This document shows, piece after piece, positions 2,008 through 48,768 of a stretch of 64,000 nt of DNA. Both the position numbers and the translations under genes were made by a program. How positions within the stretch are numbered: the stretch's first letter is position 1; each line of letters begins with the position of its first letter. Source of the DNA: a virus (Duplodnaviria; Caudoviricetes). The notes beneath the pieces are model-generated. The model was not told where the DNA came from. It saw nothing but the letters and a program-made list of their open reading frames with translations, and searched no databases. The stretch is from positions 7,322-71,321 of IMG/VR virus record IMGVR_UViG_3300004244_000010; one strand, 5' to 3'.

Positions 2008-2235
2008 ATGCGAAAACTCGCGCTCACCATGCTCGCCGTGGCACTCAGCGGCTGCGCCGCCCAGGTCATCAGTTCCAGCCCGAGATCCGTGGTCGTGAAG
2101 GCCAGCCCGCTAAAGCCCCAAGAGGCTCAAGACCTGGCCAGCGCCGAATGTGCTAAGCATGGGCGACATGCACAGCTGGCGGGCCGCCCAGATCCTGAAG
2201 GCCCGCCGCAGTGGCTGTTCAACTGCACTACCTGA
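2008..2235 (+). CDS. Small lipoprotein (moron; possible superinfection exclusion)
   Basis: Signal peptide with lipobox LSGC, two further Cys; GGGGGA upstream; opposite strand to the late operon. Confidence 0.8.
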   Translation: MRKLALTMLAVALSGCAAQVISSSPRSVVVKASPLKPQEAQDLASAECAKHGRHAQLAGRPDPEGPPQWLFNCTT

Positions 2236-5200
2236 GCTTGTCGGCCAGGTCGCGCATGACCTTGGCCTTCTTCTCCTGCTCGACCTGCGCCGCCTGCTGA
2301 AACTCGTCCGCGCTGATCTTGTTCGTCTGGCGCTGGCGCTTCAGCTGCGCAATGTTGCGGTCGATCTCTGCCGTCTCAGCGGCAGCCTTGGCCTGCAGAT
2401 TGCGGCGCATCACATCGGCCGGATAGCTGCCCAGCTTCAGCCCAAACGACGCCGCCACTGCCTGCGTGACCGACATTTCCCGCCCAAAGGCATCGGTCCG
2501 GCCCTTGGCTGCGTCCACCACGCCAGTCGTGGCATAGGTGCCGGGCAGGCCCAGCACGTTCGGCGCGAAGGCCTTGTAGAGGTGGTCCGCCACCTTGCCG
2601 GCCTGCTGCGTGGCCGTGTCGGTTTCCAGGCTGATCGCTTTGCCGGTGAAGGCTGAGCGGTTCAGCAGCAGCTCGCCCATGATCACCAGCGGGCCGCCGG
2701 GCTGCAGGCCGGGAAGCACCGGCACCGCGGAGTGCCCCTGCCCAACGTCCAGCACATCACCCACGGGGATGAAGCGGCGGATGTCCAGGTAGATCGGTGA
2801 GCCGTTGGCATCGTTCCAGGGCATGCGGATGAGCTTGGGCACCATGCCCCAGATCTTTCCAGCCTTCTCTTCCGGCAGCAGCTTGCGCTCATCGTCATCA
2901 CCGCCGCCGCCGATCGCCACGCCCAGCGCGTTCAGCGCGCCGGCCAGCATCATCAGCTTCATCAGCTTGTGCGGCCGCTTGCCCATGGTTTCCAGCAGCA
3001 TAGGCACAGCCCGGTAGGTGAAGGAAATGAACGGCCAGCCTGAATTGCGCATGGCCTGGATCCAGGGAGCATTCACGCTGTAATCCAGGAAGGACTTGCG
3101 CGATACCTTGCCGGCGGCCAGGTCCGTCGCGCCATCCTCCTTGGCCTTGAGCCAGGCGGCCAGCCGGAACACATCGTCCTCGGACTGGTAGAGCTCCAGC
3201 AGCGAGGTTGCCTCGGTGCCGATAACCTTGCCGGGCTTCGAGCCCTTGAAGGCTTCCCAGGCGCTCGGGAAACGCAGCATCAGCGCATGCTGCAGGGCTG
3301 TCATCACACCCACCTGGGCCTGCACCGATTGCCCGGCCGTCGCAGCCAGTTCAGCCTCAAGCGACGCCAGCAGGGGCTCGAGCTGTCCCTTGGAGATCTC
3401 GTTGGTGGCCCAGCCGCCGATGTCGCCGCCGGAGTCCTTGTAGCGATTCAGGATCTGGGCCGCGGCCTCACGGTCAGCGATGCCGGCGCGCGCCGCCGCG
3501 TTGCCCGCCCGCCCGATCGCGCCCTTGCCATCGCGGCCGTGGGCGGCCAGCAGGATCCGCAGGGCCTTGGCGGTGTGCGTCGCGCCGACATCGTGCCAGT
3601 CAGCCATCACGAAGTTCGACATCACGTTGTTCATGTGCACCGCTGGGCTGAGGGCGGTTTTGGCCGTCTTCCACATGGACAGGATCTGCGCATAGGTGTC
3701 ACCGAGGGGCTTGAACTGGCCATTCACCGTCTGGCGCAGGTCGTTCCAGACTGGGCCGGGCAGGTAGCGGCCGGCGAGCTTGCCGTACTTGGGCACCGCT
3801 GTGCCAGGGATCTTGATGTCTGGCACCCGCACCCACTCGCCTGGCTTGAAGGTGTCCAGGTACCGCTCCGACGCGTCGACCACCTGGCCTGGAATGGTTT
3901 CCCCCTCCTTCAGGGCATAGGTATGGGCCAGCCACTCCAGGTGGCGGCCAACCTCCACGTCATGGATCATGCCGTGCAGGGTCTTGGCAATCGCGAACCG
4001 GGCCTCGTCCACCTCACCCATCGTCTCGCGCTCTTCCTTGGTGAAGTCGCGCCACAGCACCACCTTGTCACCCTTGGTGTCGCGAGCCTCCCATGTGCCG
4101 GCCTTGTCCCAATCGCCGTACTTGGCCGGTAGCGCCTCGCCAGCGGGGAAATAGTGCACCTCCAGCAGCTTGCCCCGTGCCTTGCCCTCCATGCCTTCCA
4201 GCGGCGTTGTGCCCTCACCGCTGGCGGAATGCCGCTCCAGGCGCAGGAACTTCTCGCCCTTGAGGCTGGCATCGGCCTTGCCGGCCTGGGTCTTGCGCTT
4301 CCACCACTCCGGCGCGACGTTCTTGATCTGCTGCATGGTGGCGGCCTCGGTCAGGCCGCGGCCCTTGTACTGGTCGCCCAGGATCGAGATCACGCGCGAG
4401 CGCTTGGCCTTCTCGCCAGTGGTCTGCTCGATCACATGCTTGGCATAGGAGCGACGCAGATAGGCGAACTTGTTGCGCTCGTAGGCGTCGGGCGTCAGCT
4501 GCCCCATCGCCACCGCATCGCGCGACAGGCGATCGATCATCTGCTGCACCTCCTGCAGTACCACCACCGACTCGGCGGGCAACTGGTCCATCAGCGCCTT
4601 CGCTTCGGCCGGGTTCACCTCATTCATCCAGGCATAGGCCACCCGGCTTTCGGCGCGGGTCAGGGTCGACAGCTTCTCGATCAGCGCGCCGGCCTGGCGC
4701 AGCTGCACGCGCTGGCGGCCCTGCAGCATGGCGCGCTGGTCGATCACCGCCTCGGGCACACCATAGTCGGACACCACGCCGGCCTTGATGGTTTCGGGGG
4801 TGTAGCGATCCAGCAGGTAGCCAGCCCGGCCGTAGATGGCGCCCATCAGGCGCTCGATGCCAGTCACCCGGGCAAGGCCCTTGGCAATCGCATCGATCGG
4901 CGCGCGGCTGCCGGCCTTGGTCTGGACGATGACCTCGGCGCGCTGGGCGGCATCCGCCTGGGTCGGGGCGCGGCTCAGCAAGGAATCGGCCGGATTCTTT
5001 GTGCGCCAGAGCGCGGCCAGCTTCTCGAACAGCGGATAGTTCCTGGCAAGCAGATCTTCGATGTCGGCATAGCCGCGCGCACGCGCCTCGGCCTGCAGCC
5101 ACTTCTCTTGGCGCGCGATGTCATCGGCCAGCGTGCCGGACAGCATGGTGACGCCGGCGGCATCCTTCAGGCTGCCGCCGCGCTTACCGGCCATATAGTC

Positions 5201-8200
5201 GCGCGCGGCCTGCACCAGGTTGGCGACGAACAGATCGGCGCGCTCCTGGTCGCTCAGCGTGCCATCAAGCCAGGCCCCCAGCTTGTCCGCCAACTTCACA
5301 TAGCCGCGCTGCGCCAGCCAGTCCCGCACCTCGGAAGTCAGCTTGCGCCACCCCTTGAGCTTGACCAACTGGCTGGTCGGGATGTCCACAATCACCTCTT
5401 CGGTGGCCTCAGCGATCGACAACTTGCCGCGGCGCTGCAACTCGGTGGCCGCTCGGCGCACGCTGGCGTTGTTCGCGTAGATCATGGCCATTGCAGAGCG
5501 AAGCGATCGGCCCAGCACTGCGCGCAGCCCCAGGTGGGCGGCCTCGTGCTCAGCCAGCACATGCTCAGCGCGGGCTTCGTCCTGCAGCCCGGACGCGAAC
5601 AGGTAGAACTCGCCGCCGTGCATGGCGCCCTCAACGTCGTTCCAGGCGCCCTGCTGCAGGATGTAGAGCTTCAGTGCAGGTGGTGCGCCGGATGGATCCT
5701 TGAGCACATGCACCGCCGGCATATTGGGCATGCCGGCCTTGATGCGATCGGCCAGGGCCTGCAAGGCCTTGATATCCATGCCGCTGCTGCCGGCGCCGCG
5801 CGACAGCTTTGAGCCCTCGGGGCTGGCCTGCTCTACCAGCCGGGCGGCCCAATCTGCGACCGCGCCGCCGTTGCTCGCTACCGCCTTTGCCACCGCCGCT
5901 TCAGCATTGGGGGCGTCGATGGTGAACCCTTGCTTGGTATCGATGCGCTCCACCCAGAAAGGCTTGTCATTGCCATCGGCCACGATCGCGGCCTCGATCT
6001 CCTGTGCCTCCTTCACCTTGTCGGCCAGCATTTGGGCCATGGGGAAAGGCGTCTCCAAGCGGCTGGCCAGCGCGTCCATCTGGGCGCGCGCCTCGGTCAT
6101 CCAGGTGCGCATGCGGGCCGGAAGCCGTGCCACATCGGCAATGGCGTTCTGCGCGCGCATGGCCAGGCCGGTCAGATTCGTACCCGGGTCCGTCACCAGG
6201 GTGGCATGCGCGGGCGTGTCCAGATCCAGGCGCGGCAGGTAATGGCCGGCCGCCTGCTCGGACCGGAAAGTGACATCAAATCCAGAGATCGACCCCACGT
6301 AGGTCGGCTTGGTTTCAACCCGGGCGGACAGCTCCTTGAACTTGTCCACCAGGGCCTGCGCCCACTCGGTCCGACCGTCAAAGGTCTTCCCGCCCACCTT
6401 GGCCTTGAACTTGTCGCCGGACAGATCCTGCACCTTGCCGGCGTCAGCCTCCGCCGCCGGCAGGCGCGCGGAGTTGAAGTTGGCGGTGTCGTTGGCGATC
6501 TGGTACTGCTGGCGGAAGCGCTGGCGCTGGTCCTCGTGCGCCCGGTACAGCCGCTGCAGCTTCTCGATCTCGGCTTTTGCGCCGGCCAGCTGCAGCACGC
6601 GCGGATCCTCGGCCACCATGGCCGCGGCCAGGTCGTACTGGCTCTGGCTATCCAGGTCTTCGATCTCGCGCAGGTTGGCATCGCCGGACAGGGCCTGGTC
6701 GATGAAGAACTGCTTGGACGCGAGCATCTTCCACATGTTCTCGTCGTAGGTGCCCTTGGCGGCGTAGGCGAAGACCTGCACCAGCGGGTTCTTGTTGCCC
6801 TGCCGCACGATGCGCCCCTCGCGCTGCTCCAGATCTGCTGGATACCAAGGCGAGTCCAGGTGGAACAGCGCCTTGAGTCGCTGCTGCGCATTCACGCCCG
6901 TGCCCATGTTCTTGCTGGACCCGATCAGGATGCGCACGCGGCCTGCATTCACGTCCTTGAAGAGCTTGAGCTTGTCGGAGGACTTCTTGTAGTCCGACAT
7001 GAAGGCGACCTGCCCCATCGGAATACCAGACTCGCGCAGGCGCTTCTCAAACCAGGCGCGCGCGTTGAAGCCGCGCGACGCGGCCACGCCGGCGCCAAAG
7101 CCGAGGTCAGAGAACACCATCATCGAGGCGCCCTTGTTCGGCTCGACCTGGCCGGCCTTGTCCAAGAACTCCATGCTGGCCGTGTCTTTGGCCGTGCGAA
7201 CCACGTCATCGATCAGGCGATTGAGCTTTGAGTCCGGGTCGCTTGGGAGCGACGGGTCCATGAACCGCATATCGATCGCCGCCAGGCGCCCATCACCAAT
7301 GATCTTGATGATGGGGTCCGGGTTGTTGGGCTCATCCTTGCTCGGCTTCCAGTCGCGCGAGGCCTGCATACGCGCCTCCAGTTCCTTCTGGAAGGCGGCG
7401 TAGTCGGCGCCCTTGGGCGTGATGATGATCTTGCGGGCGCCGCCCTCGACGCGCGGCCGCTTGTCGCCCAGCAGGGCCGCCAGGTGGTCCGAGGTCAGCA
7501 CATCCGCGAACTCGCGGAACATTTGCGTGAGCTCGGGCACGTTGACGAACTTGCTGAAGCGCGTCACCGGCTCATACTTGCCGGCGGCGTTGGGCTCAAG
7601 CACGGTGTTCTCGCGGCCGAACATCGAGGCCCATGAATCGAAGTCTTCCAGATTCCGGTCCGCCAGCGCCTGGCGATCCATGAACTTCTGCACCGTATAG
7701 AGCTCGGCCAGGGTGTTCGTCACCGGCGTACCGGATGCCATCACAAGTGATCGGCCGGGGGTCTTCTCTTCCAGGTAGCGGGACTTCATGTAGAGGTCGA
7801 AGGCGCGCGCAGAACCCGCGGAGCTGATGCCCTTGACCTGGCGATTGGTCGCAAAGTCCAGCTTTCGGTACTCGTGCGCCTCATCGACATACAGGAAGTC
7901 CGCGCCGAGCTCATCGAAGCGGACGTTCTTGTCCTTGCCGACCGACGACAGCGCCGCCTCCAGCTTCTGCTCCATGTTCTCGATCTGCTTTTCGATCTGC
8001 TTGATCTTTGGATCCTTGCGGCCACCCGACTTGCCATCCTCGCCGCCAGCTTCCTCCAGCGCAGCACGCAGGTACTCCAGCTGTTCCTCGATCATCTTGG
8101 CCTTGAATTCGGGATCCAGGTCCAGCAGCTTGAATGCCGAATGCGTGATCACCACACCATCGAGATCCGACAGGGCGACGCGCGACACGAAGCGGCGCCG

Positions 8201-11200
8201 GTTGTCGGTGTGGAAATTGTTCTCGTCGGCCACCATGAGGCGGGCCGCCGGGTAGAGCTGCTGCCACTCGCTGGCGAACTGCTGCAGCATGTGGTTGGGC
8301 ACCACGACCATCGGCTTCTTGATCAGGCCCAAGCGCTTTTGCTCCATGGCCGAGATCACCATTTGGAAGGTCTTGCCGGATCCCACCGCATGCGCAAGGT
8401 AGGTGTTGCCACGCTGCACAATGCGCCAGGCGCCGCGCTTGACGTGATCGAACACGCTGAAGGTCTTCGATGCCCCTGGCAGGGTCAGGTGGCGGCCGTC
8501 GAAGGCCCGCGGCACCGTCGTGTTGAAGGTGTCGTTGTAGATCTGCACCAGGCGGTCGGTCCGTTCTGCGTCGCGCCACAGCCAAGACTGAAACTCGTTG
8601 CGCAGGGCCTCCAGCTTCTGATTCGCCGCCTCGGTCGCTGACGCATCAAACACCGACTTGGCATCGCTGCCACTACCCACCTTGGACTCCACGCGGATCT
8701 TCCGACCGGTCAGCGCATGCTCAAGCAGATCACCGGCGTTGCGCCGGTCGGTGCCCCAGTCTGCGGTAGCGCGCATGCTGCTGCCGCCGCTGCGCTCTTC
8801 CACGATCCACTGCTTGGTGCGGGGGTTCCACTCGACGCGCGCGCGCACGCCGGCCGTCTCCTGGATGAACTGCTGGTAGATCTCGCCGGGGATCCAGTTC
8901 ATGCCCAGGCCAGCATTGATCTGGCTGGGGGTCTTGGGCGCTGGCTGAGCGGCCTCGAGGGCCGACACATTGCGCTCCAGGCTCTTGTCGGCCTTGAGGG
9001 CCTCGCGCGCCACGTCCAGCTTGCGCTTCACGTTGCCGCTGAGGTAGTCGTCCGCCGTCACCCACCCGCCCTCGGGGTCGCGGTACACGGCCGAGCCCAG
9101 TGCCTCGATTGCTTCAGCCTCGCTCATGCCCAGCCGATTGGCGATGGTGGGCACATCCACATGGCCAAGATCGTTCAGCGTCGACAGCAGCGCATCAGAC
9201 GGGGAGCTGATGGAAGCCTCGACCGGCTTGCCGAGCACGCGCTGGGTCAGGAACTCGCTGGGCTTGATCTCGCCCGAATCGTCGTTCACCTTTTCCAGGG
9301 CCGCCACCAGCGTCCAGTCCGGGTCATCCACCAGCTTGTTCAGCACGGTGTAGACGCGGCGCGCCTCTTCATCGGTGAAGACTTCGCCGGTTTCCTCATC
9401 CGTCACCTTGACCTTGACCGTCTTGGTGGTGAACTGGTTCACATAGCCATGCTTCTTGGTGAAGGCGGCGTAGGCCTTTTGCAGCGCGGCCAGACTGGCC
9501 TCCCAGGCGCCGTCGTTCAGCTGGTCGTAGTGCGCCTGCTTGAGCGCGTCTCGCAGCGGCACGAAGTCCTTGATGAGCTCGATATCCTTGGCCGACTTCA
9601 GCTCCACCCGTTGGCCCACGCCACCCTCGCGCACCATCAGCGCGCCGGCATCGGACACGTAGTAGTTGCCCTCCTTCTTGGCCTTCGGGTTGAAGTCGAT
9701 CTCGCGCACCTTGGCCGCCTCGGCGGCGGACCCGCGATCGGCCGAGTAGATCCCGGAAGGCAGGTTCTCCACCGCCTTGTCGAACAGGGCTTCGATGTCG
9801 CCATCCAGCGGCGTGACGGTGTAGTCGCGGTCCTTGTACATCGAGCCGGTGTCGGCGTGCTGGCCCAGCACCATCGACGGATTGGCATGGAAATATTCGT
9901 TGACGCTGTACTGCGCGCCGTTGACCGTGAGCGGCACCGACTTGGCCCAGGGCTGCGCCTGCTCGAAAGTCTGCCCCGGCACCTTCTTGCGCAGGAACAG
10001 CACATCGGTAACTACCTCGGTCCCGGCGTTCTTCCTGAAGGCTGTCTGTGGCAGGCGAATGGCGCCCACCAGGTCAGCCCGATCGGCCAGGTACTGGCGC
10101 GCCTTGTCGTCCAGCTTGTCCATCGTGTAGCGGCTGGTGACGAACATCACCAGGCCGCCGGGCTTCACGCGGTCAATAGTCTTGGCAAAGAAGTAGTCGT
10201 GCAGCGGCATCGCCAGCTTGCCGTACTCCGGGTCGCCCAGGATCTTGGTGCCAGAGAACGGCGGATTGCCGGCGGCCACGTCGTAGAAGTTCTTCGGCAG
10301 CTTCGAGTCCACAAACGACTCCACCAGGATTCGCTCATCCGGGAACAGCTGCTTCAGGATCCCGCCCGTGATCGAGTCGAACTCGATGCCGGTGTAGATC
10401 GAGTTGTTGGCCATGCCGGCAGGCATCAGGCCGGGAAACACGCCAATGCCGGCGCCGGGCTCCAAGATCGTGCCGCCGTTGAAACCCAGGCGCTCCATCG
10501 CGCGCCACATCGACTGCACCACCGCCTTGCTGGTGTAGTGCGCGTACTGGGTAGAGCGCGAGGCTTCCGCCCACTCGTCGTCGCTCATCACCTTCTGCAG
10601 GCGCTCGCGCAGCTCCAGCCAGCGGCGCGTGCCGGCATCGGGCTTGGCCTTGTCCAGCTGCGCGCGATCGATGCTGGTGACGCTGTAGTAGCTCAGGGGC
10701 GCGCTTGATGCGGCTTGCAGGACGCGGAAGGCCTGGTAGAAACCGGCGTCGCGCGAGTTCAGCGCGCGGCCGAGGCGATCGAGCGCCTGCACCGCACCTT
10801 CGTAGTCGGCCAGCGCCGCGGCCTGCTGGTCCAGTTTCTTGCCGAAGAGGCTGTTGGCCACCTCGGACGATCCCCAGCCGACGAACTTGGCGAGCACCTG
10901 CTGCTCGGCGCGCGTGGCCTGCCGCCCCTCGGCCTGCAGCTTCTTCAGCAGCTCGACCGCATCGACGTTCTGGGCCGCCTTCTTGACCCAGCTGCCCTCA
11001 TAGGTGAGGTCATCCGGCCCGAACTCGTAATTCAGTCCTGACTTTGCGGGGATGTCTCGCCCTGCGGGAACTCCAGCGCGGCGGCCAGCACGGCCTCGCG
11101 GTTCAGCGCCTCGGCCATCTTCATCTTGGCCGCGCACTCCACGGTTCCCAGCCTGTCCCAGTTCTCCTTGATCCGCTGCCGCTGCGTCAGCTGCACCGTT

Positions 11201-14200
11201 TCCGAAGAGATCTCGCTGGCCAGGTTCGCCGCGTACTGGTTGAGCTCGCCCTTGGCGGCTAGACTGCGATGCAGCTCCGGCGCTTTTTCCTTCAGCGCTT
11301 CCTTGATCAGGTTGTGCAGTTGCATCGGATGCCCCTTGCTGTTTGGTCGAACTATATCCGTTTCCGGTTTTTTCTGCTACATTTGAGTTGGAAGGTTCCC
11401 CCATGAAGTTGCCATCGAAGTTCCCCCCGGGTTGCGAGTTTTTCGAGCGCGAAAGCGGCTCGCTCGCCGTCGTGATCCCCGGCGAAGGTCCGATGTCGCT
11501 GGTGCTTGGGGAGCTCGTGCCGGCCAAGGTCTGGCCGCCCCTGTCCGAGCCCCGCAAGCTCTCGGAGGCCGCATTCCTGGAGGCCGCCGCGGCGGAAGCT
11601 GCCGGGTAATACTCGGCCTGGGCCTTGATGACGGCCTGCTGTGTCTCCGATCCCTTGGGCTGCGTGCGCTCGATCTCGTAGAGCTTGTGGCCCTCTTCCC
11701 CTTTGGCGGCGAGTATTTCCGGCACGTTGATCTGGATCTCGGCCTGCACGCCGCTGATCATCACGTTCACCAGGACATCCCCATACCCGGAGCCGAGGAA
11801 GCCTTCGTTCTTCACGTCCGTGCCGCGCAGCGTGAGATCGGTCCGGTTCTTGACGCGGCCCTTGACCACCTCGAACTCGCGGTAGATCTGATCCAGCACC
11901 TCCTGGGCGTCTTCATAACTTGACACCACGATCGTGCTGCGCAGCAGGTCGCGCATCTTGCCGGTGTCAAAGCCTTCTTCCACCAGCTTTTCAGCGCCCC
12001 TACCAAGGCCCTTGAGCGGCGCCAGCATCTGGCCCAGCGCGCCGGTGCGCTTGGCAATGTCGATTACCTTCTGGTCATACGTCACCTTGACCGCGGCCGC
12101 AGCGTCAAGCATTGGCTTCAGCAGGCCTTCGGCGCGCGCACGGTCCTCGGCGGCGATCTCGACCGGCGGTGCCTCCTTCAGGAACTGGTCGATATAACCG
12201 CGCGCCCGGCTCACCAGCTCCTTCGGCAGGAAGGACTCGGTGCTGGGTGCCTTGAAGTTGTCGCGCTTGCTGTCGTACGCACGGCCATCGATCATGGCGG
12301 CATCCGACGCCACGGCTTGCGCCGGTACACCGAATAGGTCATCAGCGGTGCCGCGCAGGTCCAACGCCTGCTCGGCCGCCTTGCGATAGGTGCTGTCCCC
12401 GATCTTGTTCCAGAGCGGCTTCGTTCTGGGATCTGCCTTGAGCTGATCCTTGACCCACTTCGTCGCAGCCTTCAGATCGGTTCCGACGATGCGGATCGCA
12501 GCATCGAAGAGCTTGACCAGCGTAGGCATCAGGCCAGGCGTGTTCTCGGGGAGCATGGCTGCCCGGGTGTGCTTGCTGGCGATGTCGGCCAGGTCGGCCA
12601 GCGCATCCTTGAAGTCCCGCTTGGCCTGCGCGCGCACGCTGGCCAGGTCGGCCGCACCGTCTGAAGCGCCCACGCTGGGAAACTGCGCTACCTCTTCCAG
12701 CAGCTTCTGGATCGGCGCATCGAAGCGAATGACCTTGACCGGCTCACCCATCGCCATCTTGGCCAGCCATTGGTGATGGCCGTCCAGCACGTAGCCATCC
12801 GATGAAACCAGCACAGAGCGGTTGCGCCCCTCTTCCCAGGTGGAAAACCTGGCCACCTTGGAGCGCGAGAACTCGGCTTGCGTTGGCTTCAGCGTGTCGC
12901 CATCGACCTCTTCCTGGTGGTCGGTGATGCCGCGTGCCTCCAGGAAGTTCACCAGCGCGCCGCGGTGCTTCTGCTGGATCTGCGGCATGTCTGCCCGCGG
13001 AATCCCCAGCGTGCCTGACTCAGGAGGGAAGGCTACCCATTCTTGGCTTGCGTCGTTGGCAGCGGCTCGGGCAGGCCCATCGCCTTGATCGCCGCCATCA
13101 CGGCGCGCCGCAGCCTCGGGTTTGTCTCCAGCCGGTTGACCAGCTTGCGGGTCTTTTCCAGCGTCTCGCCGCTGGGAGTCTTCGGCAGTGCCATCAATGC
13201 TCCTTCGGGCCGCGCCCATCAAATCGGATTTGGCGGGCGCCTGCGGGTCTTCCAGCAGAGAGCCCTGGTTCGGGTCGCCGGCGGCGTCCAGCGCTTCCAT
13301 GTAGGCGACGATGAAATCAGCCATGCGGCGCGGCCGGCGCGCGTTGTCGGCCAGGAACTGCAGGATCTCGCGCGTCTCGGCGCTGTGCTGCTCGCCCAGC
13401 AGGCCGCCCTGGGCCAGCGCATCGGCCAGCGATGTGCCGGCCTCCTTGAGGCGCGAGAGCTCTTCCACTGCGCCCAAGAGCTCTGGCGTGATGTCGGCAT
13501 CGAAACGCACGCCCTGGTCCACCGCCTCGCGCATCTGTGCCACGCGCGGTGCGGCCAGCATCAGCGCCTTGGACACGTTGCGCAGGTTGTCGTCCATCGA
13601 CTCCACCATGCGCTGCAGCACCGGCGAATCGCCGTAGGCCTTTGCCAGCACCGCATTGCGGATTCGCACGTAGCCGGACGAGCTGAGATTGCCCGCGCTG
13701 TCGATCATGCCGGCCTGCTCGGTAGCCGGCAGCTTGGCCATGAAGCGGCGAACGAACGGGCGCGACGCCGGGCCGGAGAACCCGCCGCCGTCATCCGGCT
13801 GAAGATCCTCCATCGAGTCGATGCGCTTGGCGTCCGACCGGGCGAGCTCGCTGGGGCTCATCTGCGCCACGGTCGACGCATTGGCCTGGCGCGCGAACTC
13901 GGCGCGGTTCACCGGCGTCTGGCGCACGCGCACCAGCACCGGCTTGGCCATGGCATCCACCGATTCCGGCGTGATGCCGAACTGGGCCGCGTTGTCGCGC
14001 AGAAACTGCCGGTAGTCCTCGGCCTTCTGCCCGTTGGCCTGGTACACGCGCTTGAGCGCGATCGTGCGCGCGTTGCCAGACTCCACCAGGCCATCGGCTC
14101 CGACGATGGGCGCGCCATTGGCCGCATCGGCCGAAAGCCCCAGGCGTGCGGGGTCCAGCTTCTGCACGATGCCGGAGATCTGCATTTCGCTGGCGGCGCG

Positions 14201-15676
14201 CTCGCGCTCGCGCGGCTGCAGCTCCTGCGGGTAGAGAGGGTTCTGGCGCAGGCCCTCATCGTGCGATGTCACCAGGTCGCCAGCGTCCATCAGCGCATAG
14301 CTGGCAGCCAGGCGGGCGCCCGACTCGGTGCTGAACGAGGTTTGTGCACCCGGCAGCGAAACGGGCCAGTCCTTGGTCAGTTCGGCCCGCTGCTGCACGA
14401 GCTCGGCGCGCTTCGCCTGGAGCTCGCTGCGCTCCTGGTCGAACATCGGCCCATACCCAGCCTCGGGCCGGTTCAATTCAGCAAGGCGCTCATCCAGCCG
14501 GCCGGCCTCAGCGTCAAGCGTGTCCACGCGCTCGAGCGCAGTGCCATCAGACGGCGCGCGCAGCGCCTTTTCAGAAGCGCTGGGCTCTACCAGTCCGGCC
14601 TGGGCATCGGTGAGTCCACCCTTGGCGAGTCCGGTAGCTCCGGCAGCTCCCGGTCCGCCTGACGTGCCATCGCTTCCCGCTGCCTGCGGCGCTTGACCTT
14701 GCCCGGCTTCTGCTGGGGCGCCGGTGCTGCCCGTCTGGTCTTGGACACCCTGCCCCTCCTTCGAGAACGAACTGACCGCGGCGTTGTAACCGCCGCCGGC
14801 CCCGCCCATGGCCGCGCCGCTGATCAGGCCCAGGGCCGCGGCATTGCCAACCCCATCCGTCAGCGGCTTGCCAAGGGCGAAGTTCTGCCACATCTGCTCC
14901 TGAATTGACTGGGGCAGTTCCTCAAACACCCCTTCGGAAATGCCAGAGCCCAACACCTGCTTGACGAAACCGGCCGGCGAATTGGCCAGCTTGCCGGTGG
15001 CCAACATCACGTCAACGTCGCCCAGGCCAAGGCGGCCGGCCATCTTCCCGCCGGCAGCACCGAACAGCGCGGTACCGGCACCGGACGCCAGCGCCGCCGC
15101 AGCCTGCTCGGGCGTAAGCAGCCCGTCAGCGGTTTCACCGCGGATTTGCTCGGCAGCAGAGCCGGCGCCAATCACGCCCTCACCCAGCGCGGCAGCCACC
15201 CAAGGCGCTACGCGCGTCGATGCCTTCATCAGGCCTCGCGCAACGCCAGCGCCGCCGAGCATCTGTGGAATCGACTCGCCTACAGTGGTGGCGATCACGC
15301 TGGGGTTGTCGATCGCTGCTTTGGCGGTATCGATGAAGCCCTCGGCGCCGCGCACAGCACGATTTGCCTCCTGCTGCGGGTCCGAATAGGCCGCATCGAG
15401 GATCTTCTGGGTTTCGTTGGGCCGATAGCCTGCCTCGTCCAGGAACTTGCCGACTCGGCCACCGGTCGGGATGTCGACCAGACCCACCAGGGCCTGGGGC
15501 AGGCCCACCGCAGCCTTTACGGCAGTGACACCTACGTCCGAAGCAATATTGCCGGCAGTGCGCTCAGGCCGCGGCGCCTGAGCCTTTGGTGAGCCGAAAA
15601 CCTCATCGTCTGACAGCAGGCCGGGGGCCGGTTTTGCGGTGCCAAATACTTCGTCATCTGTCAGCAGCTTGGTCAT
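2228..15676 (-). CDS. darB: Giant DarB-like polyvalent virion protein (~4,480 aa): DdrB-ParB-like, ParB-like, RelA/SpoT-like, N6-adenine MTase, SNF2/SF2 helicase, zincin-like and C-terminal domains
   Basis: ESGNARTIAL; VSSDGYVLDGHHQW; DLLRSTIV/GYGDVLVNV/AEIQI/HKLYE; EPGAGIG + NPPF; AHAVGSGKT, DEAH, SGTP; HEAAH. Start is ATG 15676 or TTG 15691. Confidence 0.92.
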   Translation of the reverse strand: MTKLLTDDEVFGTAKPAPGLLSDDEVFGSPKAQAPRPERTAGNIASDVGVTAVKAAVGLPQALVGLVDIPTGGRVGKFLDEAGYRPNETQKILDAAYSDPQQEANRAVRGAEGFIDTAKAAIDNPSVIATTVGESIPQMLGGAGVARGLMKASTRVAPWVAAALGEGVIGAGSAAEQIRGETADGLLTPEQAAAALASGAGTALFGAAGGKMAGRLGLGDVDVMLATGKLANSPAGFVKQVLGSGISEGVFEELPQSIQEQMWQNFALGKPLTDGVGNAAALGLISGAAMGGAGGGYNAAVSSFSKEGQGVQDQTGSTGAPAEAGQGQAPQAAGSDGTSGGPGAAGATGLAKGGLTDAQAGLVEPSASEKALRAPSDGTALERVDTLDAEAGRLDERLAELNRPEAGYGPMFDQERSELQAKRAELVQQRAELTKDWPVSLPGAQTSFSTESGARLAASYALMDAGDLVTSHDEGLRQNPLYPQELQPRERERAASEMQISGIVQKLDPARLGLSADAANGAPIVGADGLVESGNARTIALKRVYQANGQKAEDYRQFLRDNAAQFGITPESVDAMAKPVLVRVRQTPVNRAEFARQANASTVAQMSPSELARSDAKRIDSMEDLQPDDGGGFSGPASRPFVRRFMAKLPATEQAGMIDSAGNLSSSGYVRIRNAVLAKAYGDSPVLQRMVESMDDNLRNVSKALMLAAPRVAQMREAVDQGVRFDADITPELLGAVEELSRLKEAGTSLADALAQGGLLGEQHSAETREILQFLADNARRPRRMADFIVAYMEALDAAGDPNQGSLLEDPQAPAKSDLMGAARRSIDGTAEDSQRRDAGKDPQAGQPAGDKPEAAARRDGGDQGDGPARAAANDASQEWVAFPPESGTLGIPRADMPQIQQKHRGALVNFLEARGITDHQEEVDGDTLKPTQAEFSRSKVARFSTWEEGRNRSVLVSSDGYVLDGHHQWLAKMAMGEPVKVIRFDAPIQKLLEEVAQFPSVGASDGAADLASVRAQAKRDFKDALADLADIASKHTRAAMLPENTPGLMPTLVKLFDAAIRIVGTDLKAATKWVKDQLKADPRTKPLWNKIGDSTYRKAAEQALDLRGTADDLFGVPAQAVASDAAMIDGRAYDSKRDNFKAPSTESFLPKELVSRARGYIDQFLKEAPPVEIAAEDRARAEGLLKPMLDAAAAVKVTYDQKVIDIAKRTGALGQMLAPLKGLGRGAEKLVEEGFDTGKMRDLLRSTIVVSSYEDAQEVLDQIYREFEVVKGRVKNRTDLTLRGTDVKNEGFLGSGYGDVLVNVMISGVQAEIQINVPEILAAKGEEGHKLYEIERTQPKGSETQQAVIKAQAEYYPAASAAAASRNAASESLRGSDRGGQTLAGTSSPSTSDIGPSPGITTASEPLSRSKNSQPGGNFDGNFMGEPSNSNVAEKTGNGYSSTKQQGASDATAQPDQGSAEGKSAGAASQSSRQGRAQPVRGEPGQRDLFGNGAADAAAADQGELGQAGNRGVRGQDEDGRGAEPRGRAGRRAGVPAGRDIPAKSGLNYEFGPDDLTYEGSWVKKAAQNVDAVELLKKLQAEGRQATRAEQQVLAKFVGWGSSEVANSLFGKKLDQQAAALADYEGAVQALDRLGRALNSRDAGFYQAFRVLQAASSAPLSYYSVTSIDRAQLDKAKPDAGTRRWLELRERLQKVMSDDEWAEASRSTQYAHYTSKAVVQSMWRAMERLGFNGGTILEPGAGIGVFPGLMPAGMANNSIYTGIEFDSITGGILKQLFPDERILVESFVDSKLPKNFYDVAAGNPPFSGTKILGDPEYGKLAMPLHDYFFAKTIDRVKPGGLVMFVTSRYTMDKLDDKARQYLADRADLVGAIRLPQTAFRKNAGTEVVTDVLFLRKKVPGQTFEQAQPWAKSVPLTVNGAQYSVNEYFHANPSMVLGQHADTGSMYKDRDYTVTPLDGDIEALFDKAVENLPSGIYSADRGSAAEAAKVREIDFNPKAKKEGNYYVSDAGALMVREGGVGQRVELKSAKDIELIKDFVPLRDALKQAHYDQLNDGAWEASLAALQKAYAAFTKKHGYVNQFTTKTVKVKVTDEETGEVFTDEEARRVYTVLNKLVDDPDWTLVAALEKVNDDSGEIKPSEFLTQRVLGKPVEASISSPSDALLSTLNDLGHVDVPTIANRLGMSEAEAIEALGSAVYRDPEGGWVTADDYLSGNVKRKLDVAREALKADKSLERNVSALEAAQPAPKTPSQINAGLGMNWIPGEIYQQFIQETAGVRARVEWNPRTKQWIVEERSGGSSMRATADWGTDRRNAGDLLEHALTGRKIRVESKVGSGSDAKSVFDASATEAANQKLEALRNEFQSWLWRDAERTDRLVQIYNDTFNTTVPRAFDGRHLTLPGASKTFSVFDHVKRGAWRIVQRGNTYLAHAVGSGKTFQMVISAMEQKRLGLIKKPMVVVPNHMLQQFASEWQQLYPAARLMVADENNFHTDNRRRFVSRVALSDLDGVVITHSAFKLLDLDPEFKAKMIEEQLEYLRAALEEAGGEDGKSGGRKDPKIKQIEKQIENMEQKLEAALSSVGKDKNVRFDELGADFLYVDEAHEYRKLDFATNRQVKGISSAGSARAFDLYMKSRYLEEKTPGRSLVMASGTPVTNTLAELYTVQKFMDRQALADRNLEDFDSWASMFGRENTVLEPNAAGKYEPVTRFSKFVNVPELTQMFREFADVLTSDHLAALLGDKRPRVEGGARKIIITPKGADYAAFQKELEARMQASRDWKPSKDEPNNPDPIIKIIGDGRLAAIDMRFMDPSLPSDPDSKLNRLIDDVVRTAKDTASMEFLDKAGQVEPNKGASMMVFSDLGFGAGVAASRGFNARAWFEKRLRESGIPMGQVAFMSDYKKSSDKLKLFKDVNAGRVRILIGSSKNMGTGVNAQQRLKALFHLDSPWYPADLEQREGRIVRQGNKNPLVQVFAYAAKGTYDENMWKMLASKQFFIDQALSGDANLREIEDLDSQSQYDLAAAMVAEDPRVLQLAGAKAEIEKLQRLYRAHEDQRQRFRQQYQIANDTANFNSARLPAAEADAGKVQDLSGDKFKAKVGGKTFDGRTEWAQALVDKFKELSARVETKPTYVGSISGFDVTFRSEQAAGHYLPRLDLDTPAHATLVTDPGTNLTGLAMRAQNAIADVARLPARMRTWMTEARAQMDALASRLETPFPMAQMLADKVKEAQEIEAAIVADGNDKPFWVERIDTKQGFTIDAPNAEAAVAKAVASNGGAVADWAARLVEQASPEGSKLSRGAGSSGMDIKALQALADRIKAGMPNMPAVHVLKDPSGAPPALKLYILQQGAWNDVEGAMHGGEFYLFASGLQDEARAEHVLAEHEAAHLGLRAVLGRSLRSAMAMIYANNASVRRAATELQRRGKLSIAEATEEVIVDIPTSQLVKLKGWRKLTSEVRDWLAQRGYVKLADKLGAWLDGTLSDQERADLFVANLVQAARDYMAGKRGGSLKDAAGVTMLSGTLADDIARQEKWLQAEARARGYADIEDLLARNYPLFEKLAALWRTKNPADSLLSRAPTQADAAQRAEVIVQTKAGSRAPIDAIAKGLARVTGIERLMGAIYGRAGYLLDRYTPETIKAGVVSDYGVPEAVIDQRAMLQGRQRVQLRQAGALIEKLSTLTRAESRVAYAWMNEVNPAEAKALMDQLPAESVVVLQEVQQMIDRLSRDAVAMGQLTPDAYERNKFAYLRRSYAKHVIEQTTGEKAKRSRVISILGDQYKGRGLTEAATMQQIKNVAPEWWKRKTQAGKADASLKGEKFLRLERHSASGEGTTPLEGMEGKARGKLLEVHYFPAGEALPAKYGDWDKAGTWEARDTKGDKVVLWRDFTKEERETMGEVDEARFAIAKTLHGMIHDVEVGRHLEWLAHTYALKEGETIPGQVVDASERYLDTFKPGEWVRVPDIKIPGTAVPKYGKLAGRYLPGPVWNDLRQTVNGQFKPLGDTYAQILSMWKTAKTALSPAVHMNNVMSNFVMADWHDVGATHTAKALRILLAAHGRDGKGAIGRAGNAAARAGIADREAAAQILNRYKDSGGDIGGWATNEISKGQLEPLLASLEAELAATAGQSVQAQVGVMTALQHALMLRFPSAWEAFKGSKPGKVIGTEATSLLELYQSEDDVFRLAAWLKAKEDGATDLAAGKVSRKSFLDYSVNAPWIQAMRNSGWPFISFTYRAVPMLLETMGKRPHKLMKLMMLAGALNALGVAIGGGGDDDERKLLPEEKAGKIWGMVPKLIRMPWNDANGSPIYLDIRRFIPVGDVLDVGQGHSAVPVLPGLQPGGPLVIMGELLLNRSAFTGKAISLETDTATQQAGKVADHLYKAFAPNVLGLPGTYATTGVVDAAKGRTDAFGREMSVTQAVAASFGLKLGSYPADVMRRNLQAKAAAETAEIDRNIAQLKRQRQTNKISADEFQQAAQVEQEKKAKVMRDLADKLR
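11032..11325 (-). CDS. Overprinted TnpV-like protein (97 aa) nested in darB, alternative frame
   Basis: LKEKAPELHRSLAAKGELNQY...KMKMAEALNREAVL resembles the TnpV pattern; AAGGGG 6 nt before ATG; own promoter; the darB frame here is a low-complexity G/R/Q/A linker. Confidence 0.7.
   Translation of the reverse strand: MQLHNLIKEALKEKAPELHRSLAAKGELNQYAANLASEISSETVQLTQRQRIKENWDRLGTVECAAKMKMAEALNREAVLAAALEFPQGETSPQSQD
11351..11383. promoter_or_regulatory. Divergent promoter pair with phage operator inside darB
   Basis: Operator ATCCGTTTCCGGTT (11356-11369), identical to 48750-48763. Minus strand TAGCAG-17-TATAGT; plus strand extended -10 TGcTACATT (11375-11383). Confidence 0.7.
11403..11609 (+). 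CDS. Antisense nested small protein (68 aa), candidate antitoxin/immunity for the RelA/SpoT-like domain
   Basis: MKLPSKFPPGCEFFERESGSLAVVIPGEG...; GGAAGG 7 nt before ATG; extended -10 upstream; the darB frame opposite is an S/T/G/N-rich linker. Confidence 0.65.
   Translation: MKLPSKFPPGCEFFERESGSLAVVIPGEGPMSLVLGELVPAKVWPPLSEPRKLSEAAFLEAAAAEAAG
13033..13194 (-). CDS. Overprinted 53-aa basic helical peptide nested in a darB linker
   Basis: MALPKTPSGETLEKTRKLVNRLETNPRLRRAVMAAIKAMGLPEPLPTTQAKNG; AAGGAG 5 nt before ATG; by hand count ~7/52 codons end in A/T versus about half in the darB frame. Confidence 0.6.
   Translation of the reverse strand: MALPKTPSGETLEKTRKLVNRLETNPRLRRAVMAAIKAMGLPEPLPTTQAKNG
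14587..14748 (-). CDS. Possible overprinted 53-aa Arg-rich peptide nested in a darB linker
   Basis: GTG start with AAGGAGG ~6 nt upstream; MSKTRRAAPAPQQKPGKVKRRRQREAMARQADRELPELPDSPRVDSPMPRPDW; the darB frame here uses many GGA/GCT/CAA codons. Confidence 0.45.
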   Translation of the reverse strand: MSKTRRAAPAPQQKPGKVKRRRQREAMARQADRELPELPDSPRVDSPMPRPDW

Positions 15677-15710
15677 GGCAGGGCGGGTCAAAAAAGCGAC
15701 CCGCTGAGGC

Positions 15711-15735: not shown

Positions 15736-17361
15736 TCACTTGACGGGCTCCCAGCCGCCCTCGCGCCAGGTCATCTTCCCCTTCGGCGTGTCATAGACCT
15801 GCCCGACCTTGCGCTGGTCCGCCGGCGGCACCTGGGCCGCAGCTGGCGCCGCAGCACCAGGATGAGCATTCCACCGGTTTCCGGTTTTCGTGTAGCCCAT
15901 GTTGGCCATCACCTCGTCGGCCGCCTTCACGGCGTCGGCCGGCTTGGCCATGTTCTTGATGCCGGCGGCCACGAACTCCTTGTGCATTTCCTCGGGCGCC
16001 TGGCTCTTCTTCGTCACAGCCATTTCAAGGGCCGAGCGCATGTCGGGCGCCATGCCAGCCTGAAGCATGGCTGTGGCCAGCTTGACCTCTGCCGGCTGCT
16101 CCTTGCCCATGCCCAGCCCGCCCTGGATTGCGGTGAGCCTTTCCTGGATAGCCTGGCGCTCCTGCGTAGTCGCTGCGTTGCCGAGCGCCAGTTGCATGGT
16201 GGCCACCGTGGACTTCAGATCACGCTGCGGCGCTTCAGCGGCAAACTCAGCTGCAGTGCGCACCTCAGCACGGCCAGCGCGCGCTTCGGCGCTGCCGGCG
16301 CGAGCATCTGCGCGCAGTGCCAGCGTGTTGCGGAATTCGTTCTGGCTGTAGTTGTAGATGGCCATCGGATCCTTGAAGGTGGCCAGCGCAGAAACAAGCT
16401 GGCCGGTGTCCTTCATTACCGTGCTGGGCATCTTGCGGCCGTCCAGCGTCTCGCGCTCGATCACGATCGAACCATCCTTGCCGCGCTTCACATCGGAGAC
16501 CTTGGCGCCATCAGGCACGTACTTGTTGTAGAACTCCTTCACCGAGTCCAGGTCGCCAGCCGCCAGCGCCGCGGCGGTCTTGCCGAGCGCCTGGTTGCGC
16601 TGCTCGGTTTCAAGCTGGATCTTGACCAGTGACTGCGCGGAGAAGTCCTTCATGACCTGCCCAGCCTGCTCCAGTTTGCCGGCCTCGGTCAGCTTGGCTG
16701 CGCGGAACTGGGTGGCCGCCAGGTGGTCATCCACCGCGGCCGCGCGCTCGGTGCCGTCCGGGTTCTTCAGCCGGCCCTTGAACCATTCCCCGACCTGGCT
16801 ATCGACATCGCGCATCAGGTTTGCATCGGCCTCGGCTTGATCTCCGGCGCGCTGCTCGCGCCCGGCCCTGGCTTCTTCCCATCCGAACCGCTTGTCGTCG
16901 CGCTCCGCCTGGGTCACATCGCGCATCATGCGAATGCCTTGCTGTGGGTCGGTCTTCATCAGCACGCCGGCCATGGCGCGCTGGCGCGCGCTGTTCACTT
17001 GGCCCTCGTTCATTGCGCCGGCGCTGCGCTGGCCCATAAAGTCGGTCACACCCTGCTGCGCAATGCGCGCCGCGGGCGCGACCTGCAACTGGCCATCGGC
17101 ACCCTGCACCTGGAAGTTGGACTTGACGGTGTAGCTGCCGTCCGGCGCAGCCTCAAGGGTGTAGAGCGGATTGCCCTGCTCATCCTTGGCGTTGGCGATC
17201 GCCTCCAGCTGCTTGCCGTCATCGGCCGTGAATCCCTGGGACTCTTCCGGCTTGGCGTTGGCGACCTTGGCCAGCTCGAAGTCCTGGCCTACCCGACCCA
17301 CCGTGTCGTAGGTCTGATTGAAGGCCTTGATGAAATCGAGAACTCCGCTCCTGCGTGCCAT
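15736..17361 (-). CDS. Internal virion/ejection protein (541 aa)
   Basis: Ala/Gln-rich helical protein between the ICA-domain protein and darB, the usual podovirus position. Confidence 0.75.
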   Translation of the reverse strand: MARRSGVLDFIKAFNQTYDTVGRVGQDFELAKVANAKPEESQGFTADDGKQLEAIANAKDEQGNPLYTLEAAPDGSYTVKSNFQVQGADGQLQVAPAARIAQQGVTDFMGQRSAGAMNEGQVNSARQRAMAGVLMKTDPQQGIRMMRDVTQAERDDKRFGWEEARAGREQRAGDQAEADANLMRDVDSQVGEWFKGRLKNPDGTERAAAVDDHLAATQFRAAKLTEAGKLEQAGQVMKDFSAQSLVKIQLETEQRNQALGKTAAALAAGDLDSVKEFYNKYVPDGAKVSDVKRGKDGSIVIERETLDGRKMPSTVMKDTGQLVSALATFKDPMAIYNYSQNEFRNTLALRADARAGSAEARAGRAEVRTAAEFAAEAPQRDLKSTVATMQLALGNAATTQERQAIQERLTAIQGGLGMGKEQPAEVKLATAMLQAGMAPDMRSALEMAVTKKSQAPEEMHKEFVAAGIKNMAKPADAVKAADEVMANMGYTKTGNRWNAHPGAAAPAAAQVPPADQRKVGQVYDTPKGKMTWREGGWEPVK

Positions 17362-48727: not shown

Positions 48728-48768
48728 ATCCGTTATAGGTTTACATATCATCCGTTTCCGGTTATTCT
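48728..48768 (+). promoter_or_regulatory. Early promoter 1 with two operators
   Basis: TTTACA-17-TATTCT; ATCCGTTATAGGTT and ATCCGTTTCCGGTT. Confidence 0.8.

Follow-up and report, generated by a model that had tools for sequence, protein, structure and literature searches.

Toxic RelA/SpoT-type synthetases are held in check by small partner proteins. Those of the toxSAS group that target tRNA are reportedly neutralised by pseudo-Zn-finger domains and the makers of (pp)pApp by Tis1-like domains (PMC11782079), and for the (pp)pApp synthetases Tas1, FaRel and Apk2 the reported neutralising partners are small Tis1-like or IapK proteins (PMC11782079, PMC12226406). RelA/SpoT domains have also been described in the polyvalent proteins of phages (Iyer et al. 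2017, PMC5512222); that study names neither an immunity partner nor a gene that overlaps or lies in antisense, the terms 'antisense' and 'opposite strand' having 0 occurrences in it. Here we analysed a stretch of 64,000 nucleotides from a caudoviricete virus record (IMGVR_UViG_3300004244_000010, positions 7,322 to 71,321), referred to below as the window, in which a RelA/SpoT-type domain lies inside a giant DarB-like protein and a 68-aa gene is nested antisense directly beside it.

The locus resembles each of the described systems in part. As in the Tas1(Apk1)-Tis1 type VI pair of Pseudomonas aeruginosa (PDB 6OX6), what appears to be a small immunity protein accompanies a delivered (pp)pApp synthetase, both predicted here; the best profile and fold match of the synthetase is Tas1, and the best fold match of the small protein, a weak one, is Tis1. 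Tas1, however, is delivered by a type VI secretion system and has its immunity gene downstream, whereas here the domain belongs to a phage virion protein, the candidate immunity gene lies in antisense within the toxin ORF, and the small protein has no detectable sequence similarity to Tis1. The MuF-Apk2 toxins of temperate phages, with their immunity proteins IapK and Aph1 (PMC12226406), likewise place a (p)ppApp synthetase domain in a capsid-associated prophage protein, with a genetically linked small binding immunity protein (a candidate in our case) and sometimes an HD-type hydrolase nearby. Apk2 is C-terminal in its MuF protein and is followed by separate immunity genes on the same strand; in contrast, the domain studied here is internal to a 4487-aa polyvalent protein, its candidate immunity gene is overprinted in antisense, and a TnpV-like gene stands in place of Aph1. 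With toxSAS type II toxin-antitoxin systems (FaRel/AT2faRel, PhRel, CapRel) the locus has in common a RelA/SpoT-type toxin and a small adjacent protein that is a candidate neutraliser, but its genes do not form a co-transcribed operon, a late structural protein contains the toxin as one of its domains, and the antitoxin candidate has its own opposed promoter with a putative phage operator. Finally, the polyvalent proteins of the Bcep22-like DarB type (Iyer et al. 2017, PMC5512222) share with the protein in the window a giant, presumably phage-delivered architecture with ParB-like, methylase, helicase and zincin modules, whereas isolated Bcep22-like phages are without the synthetase domain and without both of the nested genes described below.

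The synthetase domain of a giant DarB-like protein

The following features of the giant gene are referred to throughout.

2228-15691, minus strand: gene for the giant polyvalent DarB-like virion protein, 4487 aa (ORF, PHROG and Pfam matches)
11597-12298, minus strand: folded RelA/SpoT-type (Tas1/Apk-like) synthetase unit, residues ~1132-1365 of the giant protein (AF2, Foldseek, family profile)
11606-12100, minus strand: core of the synthetase unit that aligns to Tas1 (alignment to Tas1)

The giant gene has a GC content of 65% and is surrounded by a prophage structural module that includes integrase, capsid, tail-fibre and ejection proteins. Its 4487-aa product corresponds to PHROG 10089, 'DarB-like antirestriction' (E 0), and contains the Pfam domains ddrB-ParB, Eco57I methylase, SNF2 and Helicase_C, so that several effector and DNA-processing domains are joined in one phage polypeptide, which makes it a polyvalent protein. 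P1 DarB is a virion component that enters the cell together with the phage DNA. By analogy with P1 DarB and with JC1 gp69, a homologue detected by mass spectrometry in purified virions (PMC9144972), the giant protein would also be packaged and delivered with the DNA.

Five RelA/SpoT motifs had been reported by an earlier sequence-only reading of this DNA, and all five are found in the reported order in the minus-strand ORF 2228-15691: LKGLGRGAEK at residue 1226 (12016-11987), DLLRSTIV at 1248, GYGDVLVNV at 1302, AEIQI at 1317 and HKLYE at 1335. The window's domain falls below the cut-off of the Pfam RelA_SpoT model PF04607 (12.8 bits against 27, E 0.15), which is matched by 13 of 35 relatives of the domain at E<=0.01. 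We ascribe this failure to a clade too divergent for the Pfam model, and the RelA/SpoT assignment is therefore based on fold and family profile. Searched against the PDB, the profile of the 35 relatives matched Tas1 at E 7.7e-25, RelA at 2.9e-4, and RelA, Rel and SAS entries at 3e-4 to 0.08, the match to Tas1 being better by 20 orders of magnitude than that to any (p)ppGpp synthetase; in a single-sequence phmmer search of the PDB, the window's synthetase also ranked Tas1 first (E 0.012). The AF2 model of the domain (pLDDT 93.6, pTM 0.89) shows a central mixed beta sheet framed by helices. Foldseek returned 64 matches to this model at E<=1e-3 with Tas1 (6ox6_A) first, and the top matches listed (Tas1, the exported SAS 8vx3, Rel, SpoT, RelP/Q and CapRel) are all RSH synthetases at a probability of 1.00.

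The catalytic motifs, namely the basic K/R cluster, the Asp of D-x-x-R, G-Y, E-x-Q and H-x-x-Y, are present and align to those of Tas1, and the residues that are invariant or at least 90% conserved in the family (K107, R111, K115, D128, R131, G182, Y183, D185, E198, Q200, H215 and Y218, in slice numbering) are all found in the window. In fold and motifs the domain is of RelA/SpoT type, as had been proposed, with its catalytic residues intact and with the toxin Tas1 nearest by both family profile and Foldseek. It is probably an active Tas1/Apk-like RelA/SpoT-type pyrophosphokinase, predicted to be a (pp)pApp synthetase. The family counts 568 representative proteins at E<=1e-3, for the most part giant proteins.

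Two genes overprinted in the linker

Between the synthetase and methylase domains, the sense frame and the two other readings of the same DNA contain the following features.

11032-11611, minus strand: low-complexity sense-frame 'linker', residues 1361-1553 (sense translation)
11403-11609, plus strand: nested antisense gene for a 68-aa small beta protein (P0002), the candidate Tis1-like immunity protein (conservation, resampling, homologues, AF2)
11390-11395, plus strand: Shine-Dalgarno sequence GGAAGG, 7 nt ahead of the ATG of the antisense gene (SD-like motif in 12/12 nested loci)
11375-11383, plus strand: extended -10 element TGCTACATT of the antisense gene (TGnTAnnnT, at the same position in 10/12 nested loci)
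11032-11325, minus strand: second overprinted gene, in the +1 frame, for a 97-aa TnpV-like helical protein, P0242 (translation, homologues, resampling)
11332-11337, minus strand: Shine-Dalgarno sequence AAGGGG of the TnpV-like gene (sequence)
11351-11356, minus strand: -10-like hexamer TATAGT, putatively for leftward transcription of the TnpV-like gene (conserved position)
11356-11369, strand not assigned: operator-like 14-mer ATCCGTTTCCGGTT between the two nested promoters (repeat copies)

The antisense ORF, together with its Shine-Dalgarno sequence and extended -10 element, had been pointed out before, and we find all three in place; the ORF overlaps sense residues 1361-1430 of the giant protein. 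Its length was dropped as evidence because the giant gene holds 17 antisense ATG-ORFs of at least 68 aa, 11 of them in the same relative frame and one of 663 aa. In this relative frame, any sense stretch free of Tyr is open automatically. What distinguishes the ORF is its conservation. Twelve nested relatives, at ~50% sense identity, keep the ATG, the SD-like motif and the peptide (M-K-V-P-D-K-F-P-P-G-C-x-F ... F-P-D-G), from which the window's protein deviates in the second hairpin with I-P-G-E-G for F-P-D-G. The 12 loci are related to one another and not independent observations.

Plain synonymous-codon identity did not discriminate over the ORF body (0.42-0.56, against 0.40-0.59 in the domain), and we adopted in its place a codon-resampling z-profile, in which the sense protein is held fixed and its codons are resampled at the 12 nested loci. 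Antisense peptide identity was 0.438 as compared with 0.345+-0.005 under resampling, the extended -10 pattern was present at ten loci against a null mean of 0.17 in 12, and the SD-like motif, which also precedes the free-standing copies, was present at all 12 loci against a null mean of 3.5. The resampling z reached ~10 over the ORF only and was flat (|z|<2.6) across the synthetase and methylase domains. The extended -10 element further imposes on the sense frame the rare Val codon GTA; elsewhere in the giant gene, only 16 of 282 Val codons are GTA. A sigma-70 consensus scan of 10900-11900 called neither a promoter nor a terminator, the promoter being one with an extended -10 and no -35 element. 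The small protein has 90 database homologues, with E down to 1.5e-27. The antisense ORF at 11403-11609, unremarkable in length, is a real gene conserved beyond chance.

The sequence-only reading had also described the giant frame as collapsing into a linker at this point. Its low complexity is borne out (A/S/G/T/P/Q/R/N-rich over residues 1361-1553), but the stretch is a read-through of two overprinted genes rather than one. Together with their common promoter region, the two nested genes fill the linker over its full length, and sense identity across it (0.16-0.66) peaks where it mirrors the conserved motifs of the nested genes. A conserved sense peptide as the sole cause of this pattern, such as a cleavage site for the zincin module, was excluded by the resampling and by the free-standing homologues.

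For the second gene, the +1 frame gave a resampling z of up to 11.6, confined to 11039-11323. P0242 scores 16 bits against Pfam PF14198 TnpV (E 0.012, cut-off 27), and among its 169 homologues many have a precomputed PF14198 match and one is named 'TnpV protein' by NCBI. A sequence search of the PDB gave no match, and the literature gives no function for the protein. The gene is found in 11 nested loci; L002 and L008 keep the small gene beside the synthetase without it. P0242 is also homologous to P0243, the divergent neighbour of a free-standing small gene (L019). At the putative -10 position of the TnpV-like gene, TATAGT/TATACT/TACAAT-like hexamers occur in 11 of 12 loci, and the TATAGT of the window employs the rare sense codons GGA-TAT-AGT.

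The operator-like 14-mer has an identical copy at 48750-48763, in the early region, and copies with two mismatches at 15873 and 55356, against a chance expectation of 0.18. In two complete genomes of related phages, the corresponding spacer motifs are repeated 5 and 7 times, with a reversed control of 0. The TnpV-like gene and the divergent promoter region that it has in common with the small gene, including the operator copy, are new here. The presence of an early-region operator in this shared region suggests that immunity would be made on an early schedule, with putative expression of the small gene timed with the early genes and not simply in the lysogen.

Fold of the small protein and its linkage with the synthetase

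The antisense product had been put forward as the partner of the synthetase, and its predicted fold is indeed most like that of Tis1, the immunity protein of Tas1, if at a weak Z. In a structural comparison of the AF2 model (pLDDT 81.3), Tis1 (6ox6_B) ranked first among 48,161 PDB chains with Z 4.9 (rmsd 4.6, 60 of 76 residues, 7% identity), a weak match that lies under the tool's own safe level and within 1 Z unit of unrelated chains, the next chains having Z 4.5 and 4.2. A Foldseek search of the PDB with the small protein gave nothing significant, and a 70-sequence profile of the family, searched against the PDB at E<=10, returned no Tis1 chain and no other sequence match. Immunity proteins diverge fast, and the missing sequence match to Tis1 is therefore not decisive. 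The BFVD viral library yielded marginal matches only, to uncharacterised Gordonia phage proteins, and no family was matched in Pfam, NCBIfam or PHROG. With about a hundred relatives and no model in these three collections, the 68-aa protein defines a new, unannotated small-protein family.

Every nested copy of the small gene adjoins the synthetase domain. The mirror motif lies ~60 residues past the core in all of the ~30 closest synthetase representatives that have room for it, and the nested gene is also present in a 447-aa synthetase protein that is 31% identical, in which the TnpV-like gene was not seen. Divergence of the small protein correlates with that of the synthetase (r 0.45) and not with that of the methylase (r -0.03). 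At one locus (L004), for instance, methylase identity is 96%, while the synthetase is 47% and the small protein 29% identical. Conversely, 104 phage records that share the methylase-helicase part encode neither the synthetase, nor the small protein, nor the TnpV-like protein. Both expectations of the sequence-only reading, that the ORF should be conserved alongside the domain and that homologous phages without the domain should also be without the ORF, thus hold: the former in the nested relatives, the ~30 representatives and the 447-aa protein, the latter in about a hundred phages. In two relatives, HD_4 hydrolase-type segments or genes adjoin the module, as aph1 does in Apk2 systems.

The small gene also exists on its own. 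In L019-L024, loci from several samples, the copies have their own SD and are not accompanied by a synthetase domain within 4 kb; a toxin in cis is thus not required for the protein to have a role. In L019-L021 it forms a free-standing pair with the TnpV-like gene near integrases, in L022 it stands alone beside an integrase, and in L024 it lies in a toxin-antitoxin island. Two further candidates (L027 and L028) were rejected as free-standing copies, being frameshifted or fragmented giant genes with pieces of synthetase. A blastn/tblastn search of phage and plasmid collections with the region gave one weak match to an Azospirillum plasmid and nothing else. The small gene is linked with the synthetase domain, and it exists free-standing elsewhere.

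Proposed function of the pair

We consider it probable that the effector encoded here is a (pp)pApp synthetase whose own ORF contains a nested Tis1-like immunity gene. The synthetase domain would be packaged and delivered with the DNA as part of the giant virion protein, and the 68-aa protein, transcribed from its own extended -10 in the promoter region divergently common with the TnpV-like gene, would bind and block the domain. Such an immunity protein would protect the producing cell while the giant protein accumulates, might be stripped off when the giant protein is unfolded for packaging or ejection, and would inactivate the injected domain after expression of the incoming genome has begun; the free-standing copies in other elements could then act as orphan immunity. 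The enzymatic activity, the substrate, the binding and the timing of the pair are what we infer in this proposal. The locus had been read as a toxin-antitoxin-like pair hidden in one ORF. The conserved, linked pair is upheld, but the promoters are separate and opposed, which makes the arrangement that of a toxin-immunity pair and not of a toxin-antitoxin operon: a type II operon is co-transcribed from one autoregulated promoter, whereas here the genes lie on opposite strands and a separate promoter and SD serve the small gene.

A bolder form of this proposal, possible but doubtful, treats the 190-residue linker as a captured and still autonomous two-gene cassette, with the antisense Tis1-like gene, the +1-frame TnpV-like gene and their operator-gated divergent promoter all traversed by the giant gene in yet another frame. 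On this view an active (pp)pApp synthetase would arrive with the virion and shut down the host ahead of any phage gene expression, early immunity would then stop the synthetase and so act as a built-in timer, and the free-standing cassettes in prophages, satellites and toxin-antitoxin islands would be orphan immunity that blunts the weapon.

Rather unlikely, in our judgement, is that the 68-aa protein is real but inhibits no synthetase, and that together with the TnpV-like protein it forms an autonomous two-gene accessory cassette, with a role in regulation, anti-defence or mobility, which the giant gene took up in frame and which co-travels with the synthetase only as part of one recombination block. 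Members of the TnpV family are mobile-element proteins for which no immunity role is known, and we know of no place for the TnpV-like gene in Tas1/Apk immunity systems, which counts against the immunity reading; yet in L002 and L008 the small gene stands beside the synthetase with the TnpV-like gene absent, and the association persists across architectures and down to 31% synthetase identity, where that gene was not seen. The Tis1 match is statistically weak, but Tis1 is the partner expected a priori and it came first among all of the chains compared. The operator in the common promoter would tie such a cassette to the phage regulatory circuit, and the pairs near integrases (L019-L021) and the lone small genes (L022, L024) do without a synthetase; orphan free-standing immunity genes are, however, usual in toxin-immunity systems (PMC10470768).

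It is improbable that the small protein is an inhibitor of a synthetase with another substrate, either a tRNA 3'-CCA pyrophosphokinase (FaRel2, CapRel, PhRel-like) or a (p)ppGpp synthetase. The substrate is not readable from sequence, similar TM-scores were obtained in the fold comparison for CapRel and (p)ppGpp synthetases, and (p)ppGpp-type alarmone synthesis was assumed for polyvalent RelA/SpoT domains by Iyer et al. 2017 (PMC5512222). Nevertheless, the Tas1 profile match stands 20 orders of magnitude above any (p)ppGpp synthetase, and tRNA-targeting toxSAS are reportedly neutralised by pseudo-Zn-finger domains (PMC11782079), whereas the partner here resembles Tis1.

Least credible by far is that the antisense ORF is unexpressed and mirrors a conserved sense peptide (such as a linker processing site) or a DNA/RNA signal: the sense frame does have repeated P-[SG]-G-N motifs kept even in distant relatives, the antisense frame is open wherever the sense has no Tyr, ORFs of this size are common in the giant gene and plain synonymous-codon identity is not elevated over the ORF body, but codon resampling fails to reproduce the conservation of the antisense peptide, ATG, SD and extended -10, the flanking domains give no signal, several independent samples contain homologues that were called as free-standing genes, each with an SD and without a giant gene on the other strand, and the small protein has a confident predicted fold.

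To our knowledge, it has seldom been demonstrated that a bacterial or phage gene harbours a nested antisense gene that is both conserved and functional, and gene callers mostly miss such genes. If a synthetase effector with a nested immunity gene is confirmed, it would mean that one stretch of DNA can encode a toxin on one strand and the matching immunity on the other, which makes the two inseparable by recombination, and that the 'low-complexity linkers' of giant polyvalent proteins can conceal real genes and promoters. Phages may then inject (pp)pApp synthetases under the control of an early-expressed immunity protein, and, if this is true, free-standing members of the small-protein family in other mobile elements would mark resistance to such phages.

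The synthetase domain of the giant protein

The window, with a GC content of ~65%, forms part of a 71,321-nt provirus record in IMG/VR that CheckV rates as complete. Around its giant gene lie an integrase, the major head protein, internal virion and ejection proteins, tail fibres and an acetyltransferase, a layout of the Bcep22-like podophage type. The giant protein matched PHROG 10089 ('DarB-like antirestriction', E = 0) and contains the Pfam domains ddrB-ParB, Eco57I-type methylase, SNF2 and Helicase_C; its homologue in the Bcep22-like phage JC1, gp69 (4515 aa), has been found in purified virions (PMC9144972). The region considered here holds the giant gene and two genes nested within it:

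2228-15691, minus strand: giant polyvalent gene, an ORF of 4487 residues
11403-11609, plus strand: small gene of 68 aa, nested antisense in the giant gene
11032-11325, minus strand: TnpV-like gene in the +1 frame of the giant gene, encoding a 97-aa helical protein, with SD AAGGGG

The giant gene also holds a 663-aa antisense ATG-ORF (8717-10708, plus strand) and, elsewhere, GTG- or TTG-start ORFs of 552, 539 and 433 aa, all of which are probably by-products of high GC.

The sequence-only reading had assigned part of the giant protein to the RelA/SpoT synthetase type from five motifs, which we found in the claimed order at residues 1226-1339. Searched alone, the slice 1121-1365 scored 12.8 bits against Pfam RelA_SpoT, under the cut-off, and its best PDB sequence match was the toxin Tas1 (E = 0.012). 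A profile of 35 relatives matched Tas1 at E = 7.7e-25, with RelA, Rel and SAS enzymes scoring weaker, and Foldseek placed the confident AF2 model of the domain (pLDDT 93.6) closest to Tas1, followed by an exported alarmone synthetase and then by Rel, SpoT, RelP/Q and CapRel. An exhaustive HMMER search returned 568 representative proteins (E ≤ 1e-3), most of them giant and with the domain at variable positions; the family shows no or almost no variation in its basic cluster, in the Asp of D-L-L-R, or in G-Y-x-D, E-I-Q and H-K-L-Y-E. Because profile matches, modelled fold and conserved motifs agree, the original assignment is borne out, and the domain is a RelA/SpoT-type synthetase of the Tas1/Apk clade that is predicted to be catalytically intact. 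Iyer et al., 2017 (PMC5512222) had described polyvalent proteins with RelA/SpoT domains, and this part of the finding was therefore already known.

An antisense gene beside the domain

As a mere open frame, the small ORF is unremarkable. In the five relatives examined first (~50% domain identity), however, an ORF lay just 3' of this domain and in the same relative frame in every case. Its third codon positions coincide with those of the giant frame, and its product is kept in relatives as M-K-V-P-D-K-F-P-P-G-C-x-F ... F-P-D-G-x-V-F. The 55 nt 5' of the ATG are kept at the DNA level, including an extended -10 (TGnTAnnnT) and an SD of GGAGG type, and conservation of these signals obliges the sense frame to use rare codons, for instance GTA (Val). 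We compared 12 loci with a resampling null in which the sense protein of each locus was fixed and synonymous codons were redrawn from own-locus usage.

Antisense features at 12 loci, observed and under the resampling null
Antisense peptide identity: observed 0.438; null 0.345 ± 0.005
Extended -10 present: observed 10/12 loci; null mean 0.17
SD present: observed 12/12 loci; null mean 3.5
ATG present: observed 12/12 loci; null mean 8.1
Antisense frame open: observed 12/12 loci; null mean 7.7

In sliding windows the antisense signal reached z ~10 only at 11366-11527, where it was strongest in the small ORF's own frame, and was flat (|z| < 2.6) across the entire synthetase domain and the start of the methylase domain. 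A profile of the small protein retrieved 90 proteins from a 5.8-billion-protein collection (best E = 1.5e-27), several of them free-standing: each has an SD of its own, lacks a synthetase domain within 4 kb and faces no giant gene on the other strand. Such genes adjoin an integrase within elements that resemble prophages or P4 (L019-L023), lie between PIN/MazE and HipA modules in a chromosomal island (L024), or adjoin an SRA-HNH gene. The predicted fold comprises five strands and a C-terminal helix (pLDDT 81.3, confident). Conservation, resampling, free-standing homologues and predicted fold together establish the small antisense ORF as a real gene.

A two-gene cassette that travels with the synthetase

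Wherever the small-protein profile retrieved a nested copy, a synthetase domain lies immediately beside it. Every one of the ~30 closest synthetase representatives that extend far enough past the core has a mirror motif ~60 residues downstream of it, and the nested gene is also present in a 447-aa protein with only 31% domain identity, so that the proposed retention of the ORF alongside the domain holds. The sequence-only reading had also proposed a look at homologous phages without the domain: none of 104 phage records that have the methylase-helicase part in common (~48% identity) encodes the synthetase, the small protein or the TnpV-like protein. Pairwise divergence of the small protein tracks that of the synthetase (r = 0.45) and not that of the downstream methylase (r = -0.03), and identity between the window and the related locus L004 is 96% at the methylase start, 47% in the synthetase and 29% in the small protein; the synthetase and nested genes thus travel as a single block. 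The contrast between 96% and 47% in these adjacent blocks (sense alignment columns 515-566, ~10930-11080) implies a breakpoint of recombination where the TnpV-like gene ends. In another locus, L026:1-4337, a giant gene that contains ART-PolyVal and LPD38 domains has two matches each to the small-protein and synthetase profiles, and from sequence may carry two synthetase-plus-immunity units.

The TnpV-like gene is found in 11 nested loci, and resampling in the +1 frame gave z up to 11.6 over exactly this ORF. Its family comprises 169 proteins, many with Pfam TnpV, and its product shares homology with the divergent neighbour that the free-standing small gene has in L019; the two-gene cassette therefore also exists outside giant genes. 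Between the two nested start codons lie back-to-back -10 elements and an operator-like 14-mer, ATCCGTTTCCGGTT, with two exact copies and two near-copies in the window against a chance expectation of 0.18:

11356-11369: exact copy, between the nested promoters
48750-48763: exact copy, early region
15873-15886 and 55356-55369: near-copies, 2 mismatches each

One near-copy is ~180 nt upstream of the giant-gene start. In two related complete phages, the equivalent spacer motifs likewise recur elsewhere in their own genomes. Because the two nested genes and their shared control region fill the linker between synthetase and methylase (residues 1361-1553), this part of the giant protein is a third-frame read-through.

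A candidate immunity protein

For the (pp)pApp synthetases Tas1, FaRel and Apk2, neutralisation is reported to come from small proteins, Tis1-like or IapK, that block the acceptor site, whereas tRNA-targeting relatives are paired with another antitoxin fold (PMC11782079, PMC12226406). In an exhaustive comparison of the small-protein model with 48,161 PDB chains, rank 1 was 6ox6_B; this chain is Tis1, Tas1's immunity protein, from crystals containing both. The match is weak (Z 4.9, rmsd 4.6, 7% identity), under the tool's safe level and with the next unrelated chains within 1 Z unit. By itself this modelled likeness is no proof, yet the sole chain expected a priori ranks top. In the viral library BFVD, the best fold matches were uncharacterised ~70-80-aa proteins from two phages of Gordonia, Daredevil and Sixama (E 0.04-0.07, TM 0.5-0.6).

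Apk2 systems include an aph1 partner, and a likeness to these is seen in HD_4 hydrolase-type sequences adjoining the module in two relatives. At L028:3186-5195, a segment coding for HD_4 (SpoT-type hydrolase) separates the small gene from the TnpV-like gene; the synthetase there is broken across several frames and could be a pseudogene or reflect assembly indels. A 195-aa HD_4 gene also lies near the distant synthetase P0110.

The initial observation is thus confirmed, and the computational evidence supports a delivered Tas1-like synthetase domain whose own ORF carries a candidate Tis1-like immunity gene, nested antisense. The synthetase domain and the principle of pairing toxin with immunity were known before. 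In the literature and libraries searched, the nested, triple-coding architecture with its putative operator control, read from sequence, and the small-protein family both appear to be new.
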